Below, piece after piece: positions 1 to 9,010 of a DNA stretch of 9,344 bases. Origin of the DNA: a virus. Taxonomy: Duplodnaviria; Heunggongvirae; Uroviricota; Caudoviricetes. Below the pieces are notes generated by a model. That model saw nothing but the letters and a program-made list of their open reading frames with translations, was not told the origin of the DNA and searched no databases. Where the stretch lies: the IMG/VR virus record IMGVR_UViG_2651869749_000001. The stretch is one strand, 5' to 3'. Positions within the stretch are counted from its first letter, which is position 1. Each line of letters starts with the position of its first letter. A program made the translations under genes and the position numbers.

Positions 1-143
1 CGCAGAGTCTCCGGCGTACAGCCAATCTTTGGAGCAATGGAACAAATTGTCGCCCATTGTGAGTCATATTCGCCCTGACTTTCCAGAACCATACGGGCTG
101 CCCGTTGACGGACTTCAGGGGAAAAACGAGTATTTTTAGTCAT
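1..143 (-). CDS. IS3-family transposase OrfA, N-terminal fragment (partial, runs off window)
   Basis: Minus-strand translation from ATG 143..141: [48 protein letters not shown], recalled as the N-terminus of IS629-group OrfA. Confidence 0.8.
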
Positions 144-197
144 CCTGTTTACCTCTTTCTCAGGGAGTTTAGTCTCCAGGATTCCCGGGGCGGTTCA
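1..197 (-). mobile_element. IS3-family insertion sequence, left terminal part (IS629/IS1203/IS3411-like); continues beyond window start
   Basis: Read on the minus strand, the element starts at 197 with terminus TGAACCGCCCCGGGAATCCTGGAGACT, followed by AGAGG RBS and an ATG at 143..141. Same sequence recurs in inverted orientation at 9250..9344. Family name is from memory of IS629-type ends, not a search. Confidence 0.85.
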
Positions 198-263
198 GTG
201 CAGTGTTTATTCTGTTATTTATGCCAAAAATAAAGGCCACTATCAGGCAGCTTTGTTGTTCTG

Positions 264-443
264 TTAACCAAGTTCTCTGGCAATCATTGCCGTCGTTCGT
301 ATTGCCCATTTATCGACATATTTCCCATCTTCTATTACAGGAAACATTTCTTCAGGCTTAACCATGCATTCCGATTGCAGCTTGCATCCATTGCATCGCT
401 TGAATTGTCCACACCATTGATTCTTATCAATAGTCGTAGTCAT
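264..443 (-). CDS. ral: Ral restriction-alleviation protein, apparently shortened by a premature TAA (59 codons vs recalled 66)
   Basis: Minus-strand translation from ATG 443..441: MTTTIDKNQWCGQFKRCNGCKLQSECMVKPEEMFPVIEDGKYVDKWAIRTTAMIARELG then TAA (plus 266..264). The next 18 nt stay in frame (QNNKAA) to a TGA at 245..243. Confidence 0.75.
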   Translation of the reverse strand: MTTTIDKNQWCGQFKRCNGCKLQSECMVKPEEMFPVIEDGKYVDKWAIRTTAMIARELG

Positions 444-637: not shown

Positions 638-1192
638 TTGATGAGTATAGAAATGGATCCACTCGTTATTCTCGGACGAGTGTTCAGTAATGAACCTCTG
701 GAGAGAACCATGTATATGATCGTTATCTGGGTTGGACTTCTGCTTTTAAGCCCAGATAACTGGCCTGAATATGTTAATGAGAGAATCGGTATTCCTCATG
801 TGTGGCATGTTTTCGTCTTTGCTCTTGCATTTTCGCTAGCAATTAATGTGCATCGATTATCAGCTATTGCCAGCGCCAAATATAAGCGATTTAAGCTAAG
901 AAAACGCATTAAGATGCAAAACGATAAAGTGCGATCGGTAATTCAAAACCTTACAGAAGAGCAATCTATGGTTTTGTGCGCAGCCCTTAATGAAGGCAGG
1001 AAGTATGTGGTTACATCAAAACAATTCCCATACATTAGTGAGTTGATTGAGCTTGGTGTGTTGAACAAAACTTTTTCCCGATGGAACGGGAAGCATATAT
1101 TATTCCCTATTGAGGATATTTACTGGACTGAATTAGTTGCCAGCTATGATCCATATAATATTGAGATAAAGCCAAGGCCAATATCTAAGTAA
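638..1192 (+). CDS. sieB: Superinfection exclusion protein B-like membrane protein
   Basis: 184-codon ORF convergent with N, stop abutting the N stop. Two hydrophobic segments (MYMIVIWVGLLLLSP; VWHVFVFALAFSLAINV). Position between ral and N matches lambda sieB. First codon at 638 is TTG; in-frame ATGs at 641 and 656, so the true start is uncertain. Confidence 0.7.
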   Translation: MMSIEMDPLVILGRVFSNEPLERTMYMIVIWVGLLLLSPDNWPEYVNERIGIPHVWHVFVFALAFSLAINVHRLSAIASAKYKRFKLRKRIKMQNDKVRSVIQNLTEEQSMVLCAALNEGRKYVVTSKQFPYISELIELGVLNKTFSRWNGKHILFPIEDIYWTELVASYDPYNIEIKPRPISK

Positions 1193-1516
1193 CTAGGTAA
1201 GAGGAATCGATTTTCCCTTAATTTTCTGGCGTCCACTGCATGTTATGCCGCGTTCGCCAGGCTTGCTGTACCATGTGCGCTGATTCTTGCGCTCAATACG
1301 TTGCAGGTTGCTTTCAATCTGTTCGTGGTATTCAGCCAGCACTGTAAGGTCTATCGGATTCAGTGCGCTTTCTACTCGTGATTTCGGTTTGCGATTCAGC
1401 GAGAGAATAGGGCGGTTAACTGGTTTTGCGCTTACCCCAACCAACAGGGGATTTGCTACTTTCCATTGAGCCTGTTTCTCTGCGCGACGTTCGCGGCGGC
1501 GTGTTTGTGCATCCAT
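1193..1516 (-). CDS. N: Antitermination protein N
   Basis: Minus-strand translation from ATG 1516..1514: MDAQTRRRERRAEKQAQWKVANPLLVGVSAKPVNRP... with arginine-rich N-terminal motif, recognised as lambda N. The 133-aa track ORF is an upstream in-frame extension. nutL lies upstream. Confidence 0.95.
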   Translation of the reverse strand: MDAQTRRRERRAEKQAQWKVANPLLVGVSAKPVNRPILSLNRKPKSRVESALNPIDLTVLAEYHEQIESNLQRIERKNQRTWYSKPGERGITCSGRQKIKGKSIPLT

Positions 1517-1670
1517 CTGGATTCTCTTGTCAGTTAGCTTTGGTGGTGTGTGTGAGTCGTAGTCCTGAACGAAAACACCCCACGATTGGCTCATTTGCAG
1601 CTAATCCGGATTCGCACTTCCGGCCAATGCTTCGTTTCGTATCACACACCCCAAAGCCTTCTGCTTTGAA

Positions 1671-1869: not shown

Positions 1870-3225
<1,356 letters not shown>

Positions 3226-3319: not shown

Positions 3320-3367
3320 TTGTTATCTAAGGAAATACTTACATATGGTTCGTGCAAACAAACGCAA
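3320..3367 (-). promoter_or_regulatory. pRE promoter region with cII-binding TTGC-N6-TTGC repeat (leftward)
   Basis: Minus strand across the cII start reads TTGCGTTTGTTTGC (plus 3354..3367), the direct TTGC repeats that cII binds at lambda pRE. Promoter boundaries approximate. Confidence 0.6.
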
Positions 3368-3638
3368 CGAGGCTCTACGAATCGAGAGTGCGTTGCTTAA
3401 CAAAATCGCAATGCTTGGAACTGAGAAGACAGCGGAAGCTGTGGGCGTTGATAAGTCGCAGATCAGCAGGTGGAAGAGGGACTGGATTCCAAAGTTCTCA
3501 ATGCTGCTTGCTGTTCTTGAATGGGGGGTCGTTGACGACGACATGGCTCGATTGGCGCGACAAGTTGCTGCGATTCTCACCAATAAAAAACGCCCGGCGG
3601 CAACCGAGCGTTCTGAACAAATCCAGATGGAGTTCTGA
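3345..3638 (+). CDS. cII: Transcriptional activator cII (97 aa)
   Basis: ATG at 3345; translation MVRANKRNEALRIESALLNKIAMLGTEKTAEAVGVDKSQISRWKRDWIPKF...IQMEF recognised as lambda cII. Confidence 0.95.
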   Translation: MVRANKRNEALRIESALLNKIAMLGTEKTAEAVGVDKSQISRWKRDWIPKFSMLLAVLEWGVVDDDMARLARQVAAILTNKKRPAATERSEQIQMEF

Positions 3639-3670: not shown

Positions 3671-4570
3671 ATGACAAATACAGCAAAAATACTCAACTTC
3701 GGCAGAGGTAACTTTGCCGGACAGGAGCGTAATGTGGCAGATCTCGATGATGGTTACGCCAGACTATCAAATATGCTGCTTGAGGCTTATTCGGGCGCAG
3801 ATCTGACCAAGCGACAGTTTAAAGTGCTGCTTGCCATTCTGCGTAAAACCTATGGGTGGAATAAACCAATGGACAGAGTCACCGATTCTCAACTTAGCGA
3901 GATTACAAAGTTACCCGTCAAACGGTGCAATGAAGCCAAGTTAGAACTCGTCAGAATGAATATTATCAAGCAGCAAGGCGGCATGTTTGGACCAAATAAA
4001 AACATCTCAGAATGGTGTATCCCTCAAAACGAGGGAAAATCCCCTAAAACGAGGGATAAAACATCCCTCAAATTGGGGGATTGCTATCCCTCAAAACAGA
4101 GGGACACAAAAGACACTATTACAAAAGAAAAAAGAAAAGATTATTCGTCAGAGAATTCTGGCGAATCCTCTGACCAGCCAGAAAACGATCTTTCTGTGGT
4201 GAAACCGGATGCTGCAATTCAGAGCGGCAGCAAGTGGGGGACAGCAGAAGACCTGACCGCCGCAGAGTGGATGTTTGACATGGTGAAGACCATCGCGCCA
4301 TCAGCCAGAAAACCGAATTTTGCAGGGTGGGCTAACGATATCCGCCTGATGCGTGAACGTGACGGACGTAACCACCGCGACATGTGCGTGCTGTTCCGCT
4401 GGGCATGCCAGGACAACTTCTGGTCCGGTAACGTGCTTAGTCCGGCCAAACTCCGCGACAAGTGGACCCAGCTCGAAATCAACCGTAACAAGCAACAGGC
4501 AGTCGTGACAGCCAGCAAACCAAAACTCGACCTGACAAACACAGACTGGATTTACGGGGTGGATCTATGA
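3671..4570 (+). CDS. O: Replication initiator protein O (299 aa), containing the origin
   Basis: AGGAG RBS then ATG at 3671; translation MTNTAKILNFGRGNFAGQERN... recognised as lambda O; iterons lie inside the ORF. Confidence 0.95.
   Translation: MTNTAKILNFGRGNFAGQERNVADLDDGYARLSNMLLEAYSGADLTKRQFKVLLAILRKTYGWNKPMDRVTDSQLSEITKLPVKRCNEAKLELVRMNIIKQQGGMFGPNKNISEWCIPQNEGKSPKTRDKTSLKLGDCYPSKQRDTKDTITKEKRKDYSSENSGESSDQPENDLSVVKPDAAIQSGSKWGTAEDLTAAEWMFDMVKTIAPSARKPNFAGWANDIRLMRERDGRNHRDMCVLFRWACQDNFWSGNVLSPAKLRDKWTQLEINRNKQQAVVTASKPKLDLTNTDWIYGVDL
4019..4145. repeat. ori-lambda: four ~19-bp O-binding iterons followed by an A/T-rich unwinding region
   Basis: Four tandem copies of ATCCCTCAAAACGAGGGA-like units (each an internal inverted repeat TCCCTC..GAGGGA) at about 4019..4105, then A-rich tract ACAAAAGAAAAAAGAAAAGATTATT (about 4117..4145). 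Confidence 0.9.
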
Positions 4571-5268
4571 AAAACATCGCCGCACAGATGGTTAACTTTG
4601 ACCGTGAGCAGATGCGTCGGATCGCCAACAACATGCCGGAACAGTACGACGAAAAGCCGCAGGTACAGCAGGTAGCGCAGATCATCAACGGTGTGTTCAG
4701 CCAGTTACTGGCAACTTTCCCGGCGAGCCTGGCTAACCGTGACCAGAACGAAGTGAACGAAATCCGTCGCCAGTGGGTTCTGGCTTTTCGGGAAAACGGG
4801 ATCACCACGATGGAACAGGTTAACGCAGGAATGCGCGTAGCCCGTCGGCAGAATCGACCATTTCTGCCATCACCCGGGCAGTTTGTTGCATGGTGCCGGG
4901 AAGAAGCATCCGTTATCGCCGGACTGCCAAACGTCAGCGAGCTGGTTGATATGGTTTACGAGTATTGCCGGAAGCGAGGCCTGTATCCGGATGCGGAGTC
5001 TTATCCGTGGAAATCAAACGCGCACTACTGGCTGGTTACCAACCTGTATCAGAACATGCGGGCCAATGCGCTTACTGATGCGGAATTACGGCGCAAGGCT
5101 GCCGATGAACTGACCTGTATGACAGCGCGAATTAACCGTGGTGAGACGATACCTGAACCAGTAAAACAACTTCCTGTTATGGGCGGTAGACCTCTAAATC
5201 GTGCACAGGCTCTGGCGAAGATCGCAGAAATTAAAGCTAAGTTCGGACTGAAAGGAGCAAGTGTATGA
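4567..5268 (+). CDS. P: Replication protein P (DnaB helicase loader, 233 aa)
   Basis: ATG at 4567 overlaps the O stop (ATGA); translation MKNIAAQMVNFDREQMRRIANNMPEQYDEKPQ... recognised as lambda P. Confidence 0.95.
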   Translation: MKNIAAQMVNFDREQMRRIANNMPEQYDEKPQVQQVAQIINGVFSQLLATFPASLANRDQNEVNEIRRQWVLAFRENGITTMEQVNAGMRVARRQNRPFLPSPGQFVAWCREEASVIAGLPNVSELVDMVYEYCRKRGLYPDAESYPWKSNAHYWLVTNLYQNMRANALTDAELRRKAADELTCMTARINRGETIPEPVKQLPVMGGRPLNRAQALAKIAEIKAKFGLKGASV

Positions 5269-5555
5269 CGGGCAAAGAGGCAATTATTCATTACCTGGGG
5301 ACGCATAATAGCTTCTGTGCGCCGGACGTTGCCGCGCTAACAGGCGCAACAGTAACCAGCATAAATCAGGCCGCGGCTAAAATGGCACGGGCAGGTCTTC
5401 TGGTTATCGAAGGTAAGGTCTGGCGAACGGTGTATTACCGGTTTGCTACCAGGGAAGAACGGGAAGGAAAGATGAGCACGAACCTGATTTTTAAGGAGTG
5501 TCGCCAGAGTGCCGCGATGAAACGGGTATTGGCGGTATATGGAGTTAAAAGATGA
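5265..5555 (+). CDS. ren: Ren protein (96 aa)
   Basis: ATG overlaps the P stop; translation MTGKEAIIHYLGTHNSFCAPDVAALTGATVTS... recognised as lambda Ren. Confidence 0.9.
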   Translation: MTGKEAIIHYLGTHNSFCAPDVAALTGATVTSINQAAAKMARAGLLVIEGKVWRTVYYRFATREEREGKMSTNLIFKECRQSAAMKRVLAVYGVKR

Positions 5556-5582
5556 CCATCTACATTACTGAGCTAATAACAG

Positions 5583-5609
5583 GCCTGCTGGTAATCGCAG
5601 GCCTTTTTA
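5583..5609 (+). terminator. Intrinsic terminator between ren and ninB (lambda tR2 position)
   Basis: Perfect hairpin GGCCTGC-TGGTAATC-GCAGGCC (5583..5604) followed by TTTTT. Confidence 0.75.
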
Positions 5610-5628: not shown

Positions 5629-6069
5629 ATGAAAAAACTAACCTTTGAAATTCGATCTCCAGCACATCAGCAAAACGCTATTCACGCAGTACAGCAAATC
5701 CTTCCAGACCCAACCAAACCAATCGTAGTAACCATTCAGGAACGCAACCGCAGCTTAGACCAAAATAGGAAGCTATGGGCCTGCTTAGGTGACGTCTCTC
5801 GTCAGGTTGAATGGCATGGTCGCTGGCTGGATGCAGAAAGCTGGAAGTGTGTGTTTACCGCAGCATTAAAGCAGCAGGATGTTGTTCCTAACCTTGCCGG
5901 GAATGGCTTTGTGGTAATAGGCCAGTCAACCAGCAGGATGCGTGTAGGCGAATTTGCGGAGCTATTAGAGCTTATACAGGCATTCGGTACAGAGCGTGGC
6001 GTTAAGTGGTCAGACGAAGCGAGACTGGCTCTGGAGTGGAAAGCGAGATGGGGAGATCGGGCTGCATGA
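5629..6069 (+). CDS. ninB: NinB (Orf family recombination mediator, 146 aa)
   Basis: ATG at 5629 preceded by GGGAAG; translation MKKLTFEIRSPAHQQNAIHAVQQILPDPTKP... recognised as lambda NinB. The track ORF from 5611 is a short upstream extension. Confidence 0.9.
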   Translation: MKKLTFEIRSPAHQQNAIHAVQQILPDPTKPIVVTIQERNRSLDQNRKLWACLGDVSRQVEWHGRWLDAESWKCVFTAALKQQDVVPNLAGNGFVVIGQSTSRMRVGEFAELLELIQAFGTERGVKWSDEARLALEWKARWGDRAA

Positions 6070-6593
6070 CTATCAAATCAAATACGCCAGCACACGACAA
6101 GGACTGCTGGCAAACGCCGCTTTGGCTTTTTGATGCACTGGATATTGAGTTTGGATTCTGGCTGGATTCGGCAGCGAGCGACAAAAATGCTCTGTGCGCT
6201 CACTGGTTAACTGAGGCCGACGACGCGCTCAATTCTGAGTGGGTAAGCCACGGTGCAATCTGGAATAACCCACCGTACAGCAATATCAGGCCGTGGGTGG
6301 AAAAAGCCGCTGAGCAGTGCATACAACAGCGACAGACGGTAGTGATGCTTGTGCCAGAGGATATGTCTGTCGGATGGTTCAGCAAGGCTCTGGAGAGTGT
6401 TGACGAAGTTCGTATTATCACTGATGGACGGATTAATTTTATCGAACCATCGACAGGGCTGGAGAAGAAGGGAAACAGCAAAGGTTCCATGCTGCTGATT
6501 TGGCGACCGTTCATCAGTCCTCGACGGATGTTTACTACCGTATCCAAAGCGGCATTGATGGCGATCGGGCAGGGCGTCAGGAGGGCGGCATGA
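6066..6593 (+). CDS. Phage DNA N6-adenine methyltransferase (Dam-like), in the ninC position
   Basis: ATG at 6066 overlaps the ninB stop (ATGA). Translation [25 protein letters not shown]...[17 protein letters not shown]... contains the NPPY catalytic motif of N6-adenine methyltransferases. No adjacent restriction endonuclease gene. Confidence 0.8.
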
Positions 6594-6766
6594 GACGACA
6601 GCGACGAAGTATCACCGACATCATCTGCGAAAACTGCAAATACCTTCCAACGAAACGCTCCAGAAATAAACGCAAGCCAATCCCAAAAGAATCTGACGTA
6701 AAAACCTTCAATTACACGGCTCACCTGTGGGATATCCGGTGGCTAAGACATCGTGCGAGGAAATGA
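6590..6766 (+). CDS. ninE: NinE-like small basic protein (58 aa)
   Basis: ATG overlaps the methyltransferase stop; translation [58 protein letters not shown]; CxxC pair; assigned to NinE from memory. Confidence 0.7.
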
Positions 6767-7122
6767 CAATGGATTATTCACAGTTAAGTGATTTTGAAAT
6801 TAACAGAATGGTAGGAGACATAATTTTTAAAGGCCTTTGGGCATGTAAACCGGAAACATCAGGGAATAACACCAACAAATGGTATTACGGAAATGCTGAT
6901 ACAACTTTTGAGCCATTAAACCCTTTGCCTGACTACTGCAATGATCCTAGCGCCTCATGGCCGATTATTGAGAAGTACAGGATTAGCATCATCAATCTCG
7001 ATGAAGACGAGTGGGGTGCACGTGGTGTGGCCGACTGTAAATCTAAGCGAGCTATACATGAAAATTCCCTCCGCGCCGCCATGATTGTCTTTCTCATGAT
7101 GCAGGACGCCAATAATGCTTAG
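6763..7122 (+). CDS. Hypothetical nin-region protein (119 aa) between ninE and ninF (P22 ninX position)
   Basis: ATG at 6763 overlaps the ninE stop (ATGA); translation [34 protein letters not shown].... Absent from lambda's nin region as I recall it. No function inferable. Confidence 0.55.
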
Positions 7123-7291
7123 CCCATCCCAATCTCTTCAATACCAGAAAGAAAGCGTCGAGCGGGCTTTAACGTGCGCTAACTGCGGTCAGAAGCTGCA
7201 TGTGCTGGAAGTTCATGTGTGTGAGCACTGCTGCGCAGAACTGATGAGCGATCCGAATAGCTCAATGTACGAGGAAGAAGACGATGAGTGA
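7115..7291 (+). CDS. ninF: NinF-like small Cys-rich protein (58 aa)
   Basis: ORF below the track size cutoff, found by reading: ATG 7115, [58 protein letters not shown], stop 7289..7291. CxxC...CxxCC pattern with acidic tail; overlaps the upstream ORF by 8 nt. Confidence 0.65.
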   Translation: MLSPSQSLQYQKESVERALTCANCGQKLHVLEVHVCEHCCAELMSDPNSSMYEEEDDE

Positions 7292-7553
7292 TTTCTCTGA
7301 GCTTATTTCCTTCAAAAAAGACAGAGAAGAAATGCGGACTGAATCTGTCTATTACGTTCAACACCGGAATAAACGCTCGGTGCTTGATCAGGAGCTGGTT
7401 ATTACCGGAGACCTGGCATTCAGAACATATAAGGCCAGCATGGAAATGAAGGATTTCCCTAAATGTGGTTCTGAAAGAGAAGCCGCGTTAAAGCTGGCAG
7501 AGTGGATGCAGAGAATGGCTGCTGCAATTGAGAATTACTGGAGCGAACCATAA
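7284..7553 (+). CDS. Hypothetical protein (89 aa) between ninF and ninG
   Basis: ATG at 7284 overlaps the ninF 3' end; stop TAA overlaps the ninG ATG (TAATG). Translation [44 protein letters not shown].... No recognisable motif. Confidence 0.5.
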
Positions 7554-8164
7554 TGGCTAAACAAGCGCGAAGACGATGTAAAAACGAAGAATGTCGGGAA
7601 TGGTTTCACCCTGCATTCGCTAATCAGTGGTGGTGCTCTCCAGAGTGTGGAACAAAGATAGCACTGGAACGACGAAGCAAAGAACGCGAAAAAGCGGAAA
7701 AAGCAGCAGAGAAGAAACGACGACGAGAGGAGCAGAAACAGAAAGATAAACTGAAGATTCGAAAACTCGCCTTAAAGCCCCGCAGTTACTGGATTAAACA
7801 AGCCCAACAAGCTGTAAACGCCTTCATCAGAGAAAGAGACCGCGACTTACCATGTATCTCGTGCGGAACGCTCACGTCTGCTCAGTGGGATGCCGGACAT
7901 TACCGGACAACTGCTGCGGCACCTCAACTCCGATTTGATGAACGCAATATTCACAAGCAATGCGTGGTGTGCAACCAGCACAAAAGCGGAAATCTCGTTC
8001 CGTATCGCGTCGAACTGATTAACCGCATCGGGCAGGAAGCAGTAGACGAAATCGAATCAAACCATAGCCGCCATCGCTGGACTGTCGAAGAGTGCAAGGC
8101 GATCAAGGCAGAGTACCAACAGAAACTCAAAGACCTGCGAAATAGCAGAAGTGAGGCCGCATGA
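7553..8164 (+). CDS. ninG: NinG / Rap recombination-associated endonuclease (203 aa)
   Basis: Translation [61 protein letters not shown]... recognised as lambda NinG, with Cys clusters (CKNEEC, CSPEC, CISC, CVVC). Confidence 0.9.
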
Positions 8165-8367
8165 CGTTCTCAGTAAAAACCATTCCAGACATGCTCGTTG
8201 AAGCATACGGAAACCAGACAGAAGTAGCACGCAGACTGAAATGTAGTCGCGGTACGGTCAGAAAATACGTTGATGATAAAGACGGGAAAATGCACGCCAT
8301 CGTCAACGATGTTCTTATGGTTCATCGCGGATGGAGTGAAAGAGATGCGCTATTACGAAAAAATTGA
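8161..8367 (+). CDS. ninH: NinH (68 aa, small DNA-binding-like protein)
   Basis: ATG overlaps the ninG stop (ATGA); translation [43 protein letters not shown]... recognised as lambda NinH. Confidence 0.85.
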
Positions 8368-9010
8368 TGGCAGCAAATACCGAAATATTTGGGTAGTTGG
8401 CGATCTGCACGGATGCTACACGAACCTGATGAACAAACTGGATACGATTGGATTCGACAACAAAAAAGACCTGCTTATCTCGGTGGGCGATTTGGTTGAT
8501 CGTGGTGCAGAGAACGTAGAATGCCTGGAATTAATCACATTCCCCTGGTTCAGAGCTGTACGTGGAAACCATGAGCAAATGATGATTGATGGCTTATCAG
8601 AGCGTGGAAACGTTAATCACTGGCTGCTTAATGGCGGTGGATGGTTCTTTAATCTCGATTACGACAAAGAAATTCTGGCTAAAGCTCTTGCCCATAAAGC
8701 AGATGAACTTCCGTTAATCATCGAACTGGTGAGCAAAGATAAAAAATATGTCATCTGCCACGCCGATTATCCTTGTGACGAATACGAGTTTGGAAAACCA
8801 GTTGATCATCAGCAGGTAATCTGGAACCGCGAACGAATCAGCAACTCACAAGACGGGATCGTGAAAGAAATCAAAGGTGCGGACACGTTCATCTTTGGTC
8901 ATACGCCAGCAGTGAAACCACTCAAGTTTGCCAACCAGATGTATATCGATACCGGCGCAGTGTTCTGCGGAAACCTCACATTGATTCAGGTACAGGGAGA
9001 AGGCGCATGA
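8345..9010 (+). CDS. ninI: NinI serine/threonine protein phosphatase (221 aa)
   Basis: ATG at 8345 ([25 protein letters not shown]...); metallophosphatase motifs GDLHG, GDLVDRG, GNHE. The track ORF from 8270 is an upstream extension overlapping ninH. Confidence 0.9.

Follow-up and report, generated by a model that had tools for sequence, protein, structure and literature searches.

Two small accessory genes in the nin region of a lambdoid prophage: ninX and a PHROG 1258 cassette between ninF and ninG

The two small open reading frames that lie among the nin genes of the DNA analyzed here (a stretch of 9,344 nucleotides, hereafter the window) are, in our reading, two genuine accessory genes of the early-right operon (pR, N-antiterminated), namely ninX (ORF1) and a gene cassette of the family PHROG 1258 (ORF2, or orf89), and we put the probability of this reading at roughly 85%. 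A first-pass annotation had described both as real genes inserted among the nin genes, outside the order ninC-ninD-ninE-ninF-ninG of phage lambda, and the ORF list and the sequence agree with the coordinates that it gave (6763..7122 and 7284..7553). Both frames indeed fall outside lambda's own order, and both are borne out as genes, ORF1 by its membership in PF10765 and PHROG 444, and ORF2 by its match to PHROG 1258 together with purifying selection. The description as insertions has to be divided: it fits ORF2, which is a presence/absence cassette, but not ORF1, which occupies the canonical P22-type slot of ninX.

Judged by the labels from Pfam and PHROG scans, the window is the early region of a lambdoid prophage, with the following layout.

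264-443, minus strand: ral
638-1192, plus strand: sieB
within 1193-1594, minus strand: N
1870-2274, minus strand: 134-aa ORF with an apparent signal peptide, in the rex slot
2271-2903, minus strand: cI, LexA/S24-type
3010-3225, plus strand: cro
3345-3638, plus strand: cII
3671-4570, plus strand: O, assigned by its position, by four ~20-bp repeats within it at 4019-4105 and by the "replication protein" annotation of matching genomes rather than by a Pfam or PHROG scan
4567-5268, plus strand: P, assigned by the "replication protein P" annotation in matching E. coli genomes, likewise not by a Pfam or PHROG scan
5265-5555, plus strand: ren
5629-6069, plus strand: ninB
6066-6593, plus strand: Dam-type methyltransferase gene, two genes upstream of ninX
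6590-6766, plus strand: ninE (PF05322 NinE, E 7e-44, 1-58/58)
6763 or 6769..7122, plus strand: ninX (ORF1; PF10765, PHROG 444)
7115-7291, plus strand: ninF, zinc-ribbon-like, 58 aa (PF05810, E 1.8e-12; PHROG 672, E 1e-37)
7284-7553, plus strand: ORF2 (orf89), 89 aa (PHROG 1258, E 4.7e-38)
7287..7555, plus strand: ORF2 cassette, 269 bp, absent from ninF-ninG prophages without ORF2
7553-8164, plus strand: ninG/rap (PF05766 NinG, E 3.4e-90; PHROG 171)
8161-8367, plus strand: ninH
8345-9010, plus strand: ninI-type phosphatase gene
9007-9252, plus strand: Q antiterminator gene, first 81 codons

Inverted copies of an IS3-family element (97% complementary) flank the early region at 1-199 and 9248-9344; one of them cuts Q, and the prophage is therefore a remnant. 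None of the complete E. coli genomes contains the entire window with its IS flanks. It may be that ninX and ORF2 are perhaps never usefully expressed in the host from such a Q-cut remnant. Both genes lie between a tR2-like terminator (5581-5604, upstream of ninB) and Q, and a scan of 6590-8164 returned no promoter-like or terminator-like site above background; therefore, they are placed in the early-right operon. An Rfam scan of the window found no RNA family, and no PHROG matched the ORFs that run antisense or in alternative frames within the interval that holds ORF1 and ORF2.

The nin genes are known for dense packing with ATGA overlaps (PMC8022706), and overlapping start and stop codons had also been the argument by which both ORFs were initially taken to be coupled to their neighbors. 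Such overlaps are present at every junction that we read. The ninE stop TGA (6764-6766) overlaps the ATG at 6763 of ORF1 in an ATGA (6763-6766); ninF begins at ATG 7115 inside the end of ORF1 (stop TAG 7120-7122) with an 8-nt overlap; ORF2 begins at ATG 7284 inside the end of ninF, again with an 8-nt overlap (GACGATGAGTGA); and the ORF2 stop TAA (7551-7553) and the ninG ATG (7553) form a TAATG with a 1-nt overlap. This arrangement is compatible with coupled translation of the string ninE-ninX-ninF-orf89-ninG. The first of these overlaps, however, is lost if ORF1 starts at the second of its two in-frame ATGs on the plus strand, which gives a protein of 117 aa (from ATG 6769) instead of 119 aa (from ATG 6763). 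A Shine-Dalgarno GAGG (6757-6760) lies 8 nt ahead of ATG 6769 but just 2 nt ahead of ATG 6763, most members of the NinX family begin with MDYS, and the biggest near-identical database cluster of ORF1 is 117 aa long. Taken together, the spacing, the MDYS starts and the cluster length indicate that ORF1 probably starts at 6769, which is 2 nt past the ninE stop and not in an ATGA overlap.

The identity of ORF1 is carried by family membership and by gene order. Residues 4-114 of ORF1 cover the PF10765 profile (Phage_P22_NinX, formerly DUF2591) from 1 to 114 of its 114 positions, with 55.1 bits against a gathering cut-off of 22.6, and the match to PHROG 444 has an E-value of 6e-46. Compared by tblastn with the annotated ninX of P22 (AF217253), ORF1 shows 46% identity over 100% of the query (E 2e-15). 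All sources that carry a name among 463 homologues say NinX or DUF2591, and near-identical E. coli proteins are labeled "phage protein NinX family protein" by PGAP. The nin order published for P22 is ninB-D-E-X-F-G-Y-H (PMC8022706, PMC11016777), and the window retains ninE-ninX-ninF-...-ninG-ninH; the run ninE-ninX-ninF also occurs in two E. coli prophages, in Salmonella phage SPN9CC and in one Cronobacter prophage. On these matches, ORF1 is ninX in its canonical P22-type slot, not an insertion.

The gene is common. Of 5426 complete E. coli genomes, 1104 (~20%) contain NinX DNA, and the protein appears in 620 phage records, including phages of Vibrio, Klebsiella, Yersinia and Pseudoalteromonas. 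The family has several interchangeable variants of the central segment (~residues 16-55 and 75-97), of which this allele carries one; the segment is hypervariable and undergoes reassortment within the gene. Since P22 deleted from ninB through ninH is viable (PMC11016777), ninX is non-essential.

ORF2 is much rarer (148 of 5426 complete E. coli genomes, 2.7%), and its position is nearly constant. Among the full-length E. coli matches listed, ninF precedes ORF2 in 39/39, while ninG or a DUF1364 gene follows in 36/39 and the remaining 3/39 rows name no gene. The order is also kept outside E. coli, with NinX-NinF-orf-NinG in Cronobacter (orthologue 66% identical) and orf-NinG in Rahnella (orthologue 73% identical). 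Thus conservation in related prophages, which had been put forward as a check on both frames, was found for both, each being kept at the same position.

A three-way DNA alignment of the window, an E. coli prophage without ORF2 (L016) and SPN9CC defines the two junctions of the cassette. The left junction falls directly after a shared GACGATG, and the right junction at the ninG ATG, followed by GCTAAAC. In the prophage without ORF2, the ATG in GACGATGGCTAA is the start of ninG; with the cassette in place, the same ATG starts ORF2, and a new TAATG 269 bp further on restores the start of ninG. ORF2 therefore usurps a start context that belongs to ninG in prophages without the cassette. Of the two ORFs, only ORF2 acts as a presence/absence cassette, and its exact junction at ninF/ninG accords with the earlier view of the nin region as a mosaic slot for accessory genes.

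Residues 2-89 of ORF2 match positions 9-97 of the 97-position PHROG 1258 profile (E 4.7e-38), while searches of Pfam, NCBIfam and PADLOC returned no family for it; NCBIfam and PADLOC were likewise empty for ORF1. The protein has identical copies (100%) in phage mEp235, as gp51, and in ECP1 and phiv205-1, and is 97.8% identical to SPN9CC gp35 and to its counterparts in a number of P22-like Salmonella phages; this close family keeps 98-100% identity across E. coli and Salmonella. Distant relatives, at 35-44% identity, are N15 gp44, phiKO2 gp43, HK225 gp58, and RCS47 gp052 and its counterpart in SJ46 (both P1-like), with others in phages of Klebsiella, Proteus and Providencia; for the four proteins named by gp number, the tblastn alignments span more than 90% of the protein. 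An exhaustive HMMER search gave 67 clusters (50% identity) with E < 1e-3, and the profile run against 5.8 billion proteins found 105, all of them "hypothetical", none with a Pfam domain, and all those with a named source from Enterobacterales. Some records of the family are mislabeled "portal protein". Based on these searches, ORF2 belongs to an uncharacterized family confined to phages of Enterobacterales.

Members share the motif EAALKLA[DE]W..R...AI in the C-terminal helix with a DFP loop before it, and K70, W74, R77 and Q36 are nearly invariant among 59 diverse members. A Pfam scan of these 59 relatives returned only fragments of neighboring genes (Ead/Ea22 and an Rv2179c-like exonuclease), apparently from fused gene calls. 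When ORF2 is compared with its Cronobacter and Rahnella orthologues, pS reaches saturation (0.77-0.82) while pN stays low (0.14-0.20), and therefore the ORF2 frame is under purifying selection.

Structure prediction and remote homology, also proposed as checks, were applied to both proteins. The AF2 model of NinX, built from an alignment of 57 sequences, reached a pLDDT of 93.5 and a pTM of 0.88, and has an N-terminal helix that is followed by the variable beta insert and an alpha-beta-beta-beta-alpha unit (H60-69, E73-78, E81-88, E91-97 and H100-116 in the C-terminal half). In a Foldseek search of the PDB its only significant match was 1R7L (E 6e-4, TM 0.61-0.65), an uncharacterized protein, while 4PUP was similar in TM (0.62-0.64) but non-significant alone (E 0.4). 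The model of ORF2 (pLDDT 79.3) predicts four antiparallel strands and, after them, a helix of 24 residues (E4-13, E18-28, E33-43, E48-55, H64-87). Foldseek found nothing for it in the PDB under E 0.18, hence no significant match, and in BFVD one homologue alone (A0A517YZT4), which was uninformative. Searching the PDB with single sequences and with family profiles of NinX and ORF2 yielded noise only. Both proteins are acidic: NinX has a pI of 4.6 in a family with a median pI of 4.56, a median net charge of -6 and 98% of sampled members below pI 7, and ORF2 has a pI of 5.4 in a family with a median of 5.5, of which 86% are acidic.

What the two proteins do can be approached only through such features. 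The first-pass annotation had given neither gene a role, and family, structure and literature searches likewise give no function; no homologue of assigned function for NinX or ORF2 turned up among the searches made. Full-text literature searches for NinX, DUF2591, PF10765, the PHROG identifiers, 1R7L and nin anti-defence returned annotation mentions and the P22 nin deletion only. Against Pfam, NCBIfam and PADLOC, neither protein showed an enzyme family or a catalytic-domain signature, and both products are small, single-domain and acidic. NinX may nevertheless be a small enzyme, given its few invariant polar residues (D2, D8, E10, D55, C57 and R102).

Gene neighborhoods offer some context. The nin region of the window also holds ninB, the Dam-type methyltransferase gene and ninG, and the distant ORF2 homologues are always found in early accessory clusters, with DNA methyltransferase, DnaQ-like exonuclease, NUDIX and ASCH genes as neighbors and Ead/Ea22 and NinX genes also adjoining. 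However, an all-versus-all BLAST of the flanking proteins from N15, phiKO2, RCS47, HK225, a Proteus phage and four metagenomic contigs revealed no protein common to different groups, and Pfam scans of the proteins flanking distant homologues were empty. ORF2 thus has no constant gene partner beyond its close relatives, and guilt by association is weak.

Taken together, we tentatively suggest that NinX and ORF2 might be non-catalytic proteins, made from the pR operon early in lytic growth, that bind stoichiometrically to a protein of the host or the phage and not to DNA itself; they would thereby tune recombination, repair or the defence against host nucleases and other host defences, while being dispensable for plaque formation in the laboratory. 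This proposal, that they modulate DNA transactions or help to evade nucleases and defences, is possible but more likely wrong than right. We think it quite unlikely that a bolder form of it applies, in which the orf89/N15 gp44-like family would represent an undescribed beta4-alpha fold serving as a mobile, single-gene nuclease inhibitor (acting on host repair or anti-phage nucleases) or as a regulator of the junction resolvase next to it, with NinX, through its reassorting variable insert, as a second, specificity-switching binder.

Other explanations may be considered for one or both genes. If they were counter-defence factors, i.e., small acidic inhibitors or decoys of a host nuclease or of an abortive-infection sensor, this would account for their patchy, cassette-like distribution, the ORF2 cassette being present in 2.7% of E. 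coli genomes and moving among lambdoid, N15-like and P1-like phages. It would also fit two families that are acidic, small and non-enzymatic, and the hypervariable, reassorting central segment of NinX counts in the same direction, as do the methyltransferase genes near ORF2 homologues and the Dam-type methyltransferase two genes upstream of ninX. However, the close ORF2 family is 98-100% conserved in E. coli and Salmonella, which is atypical of arms-race proteins, and full-text searches turned up neither a function nor an anti-defence role for NinX or DUF2591 and covered the ORF2 family by its PHROG identifier only; PADLOC comprises defence systems and not their inhibitors. We regard a counter-defence role as unlikely. 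A further reading, that ORF1 and ORF2 are chance open frames or non-coding spacer, draws on their small size and nothing else, and has practically no probability in view of the strong family HMM matches, the hundreds of homologues, the confident fold predictions, the lack of any Rfam family, the synteny conserved across genera, and, for ORF2, purifying selection; we consider it refuted on these grounds.

Binding of nucleic acids was weighed for each protein. ORF2 has a predicted topology of exactly four antiparallel strands and one long helix, which we take to resemble the PC4/Whirly/PUR ssDNA-binding motif, and as such a module, in the form of a helix-swapped dimer, it might aid NinB/Orf and NinG/Rap. 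Whirly (3r9y, 3n1h) and Pur-alpha (3k44) structures do appear in its Foldseek list, the gene in close relatives adjoins ninG or another nuclease-type gene, and the helix residues K70, W74 and R77 hardly vary across the wide family. But the Whirly and Pur-alpha matches are non-significant (E at least 1.0, probability 0.14-0.41, TM 0.24-0.37), hhalign of the family profile with human PC4 gave a probability of 0.2%, W74 appears by helical-wheel reading to lie on the sheet-packing face, and ORF2 and its family (pI 5.4, median 5.5) are acidic, unlike basic ssDNA binders, as far as net charge alone can tell. An ssDNA-binding ORF2 is accordingly very doubtful, and membership in the PC4-like fold was dropped on the hhalign and charge analyses. 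For NinX, the alpha-beta-beta-beta-alpha order in the C-terminal half of the confident model (pLDDT 93.5) recalls a dsRNA-binding domain, and such domains are numerous among its Foldseek matches (ILF3, ADAR2, Staufen, RNase III). These matches are all weak (E at least 0.075, TMq 0.26-0.34), whereas significance is limited to the whole-domain match to 1R7L; the family is strongly acidic (median pI 4.56), and the last helix is hydrophobic and has no basic KKxAK-type motif. It is highly improbable that NinX binds nucleic-acid duplexes in this manner.

Public annotation already includes both genes, with ninX as a named family and ORF2 as a recurrent hypothetical protein, so that the finding is ordinary as a discovery and its value modest. 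It allows the record to be tidied, in that ORF1 should be named ninX and probably starts at 6769, and it links ORF2 to a wider family of Enterobacterales phages (N15 gp44, phiKO2 gp43) that has no Pfam entry. Further, the start-codon-to-start-codon junction of ORF2 is a clean example of how the nin region is built as a mosaic. If one of the functional proposals were true (a counter-defence factor or a recombination modulator), the abundance of NinX would make its role worth knowing.

Among known systems, the NinX of P22 is the natural reference for ORF1, with which it has in common the slot between ninE and ninF, the tight packing and the non-essential status, but the allele in the window resembles the E. 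coli, ST104 and Oslo types (~80% identity) more closely than it does P22 NinX. Structurally, 1R7L (a phage protein from Bacillus cereus ATCC 14579) and 4PUP (from Burkholderia cenocepacia) share the overall alpha/beta sandwich of the NinX model at merely 12-14% identity, with no match at the level of sequence. Both are structural-genomics entries without assigned function, and neither provides a mechanism for NinX.

For ORF2, the homologues in N15 (gp44), phiKO2 (gp43), HK225 (gp58) and RCS47 (gp052) have the same C-terminal helix motif and likewise sit in an early accessory cluster after replication and regulatory genes. Unlike ORF2, however, they have neither ninF nor ninG as neighbors, their flanks are unrelated, and with 83-111 aa they carry an extra loop or tail. 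The closest counterparts are mEp235 gp51, SPN9CC gp35 and the hypothetical protein E2348C_2523, which are 98-100% identical to ORF2. In these counterparts the gene directly follows ninF with the same 8-nt overlap, and the difference lies in what comes after it, which is ninG in the window but, in mEp235 and SPN9CC, an HNH/DUF1364-type gene and then rusA.

The gene ninX (window 6769-7122, plus strand), a P22-type nin gene lying between ninE and ninF, is itself mosaic in the alignment of its family. Both ends of the protein are conserved there, as an N-terminal helix (MDYSxLSDFEIN) and a C-terminal helix, while the segments between them fall into several unrelated variants that reassort, and many E. 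coli hits match one half of ninX alone.

For ORF2, the 89-aa gene between ninF and ninG, several GenBank phage records label the homologues "portal protein". Proteins of this type are about 90 aa long, and the label almost certainly reflects an annotation mistake passed on from record to record. The entries carrying it are as follows.

Phage mEp235 (L009) and phiv205-1 (MN340231): ORF2 homologues labeled "portal protein"
Proteus phages MN840487 and KY742649: ORF2 homologues labeled "portal protein"

The mEp235 record also annotates a sigma-70-like promoter within the last 26 nt of its gene identical to ORF2, directly upstream of the following gene (L009 3745-3771, equivalent to about 7528-7554 in the window); a simple promoter scan did not pick up this window counterpart.

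Two further features precede ninE in the window.

4019-4105: four tandem repeats of about 20 bp, ATCCCTCAAAACGAGGGAAA and variants
6066-6593, plus strand: Dam-type N6-adenine methyltransferase (PF05869, E 6e-65)

The repeats lie within the gene read as O and represent the origin iterons expected there. The methyltransferase gene, whose start overlaps the ninB stop in an ATGA, is flanked by ninB and ninE, an interval that ninC and ninD occupy in lambda and P22.

Inverted copies of an IS3-family element stand on both sides of the prophage segment, and the right-hand copy interrupts the antiterminator gene Q after codon 81.

1-199, minus strand: left copy of the element, inverted relative to the right copy
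9248-9344, plus strand: right copy, inverted relative to the left copy
9007-9252, plus strand: antiterminator Q, partial (Pfam Antiterm, residues 23-80)

The arms are 97% complementary over 97 nt, a length set by the window edge. "IS3 family transposase" is the PGAP label on DNA identical to this element, and its end sequence, TGAACCGCCCCGGGAATCCTGGAG, resembles IS629/IS1203. The whole IS-flanked arrangement was found in none of the complete E. coli genomes searched. Because no lysis or late genes follow the cut Q in the window, the prophage is a defective remnant.

In the immunity region, the cI and cro proteins (2271-3225), assigned at the level of domain family only (HTH_3, Peptidase_S24), have the look of the phage 434 immunity pair. 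Adjoining them is one more reading frame.

1870-2274, minus strand: 134-aa ORF, match to PHROG 2651

It starts at the cI stop codon, its N-terminus is signal-peptide-like in sequence, its PHROG is one without known function, and a Pfam scan found no family for it. Possibly this ORF is a moron expressed during lysogeny; it occupies the slot held by rexAB in lambda.
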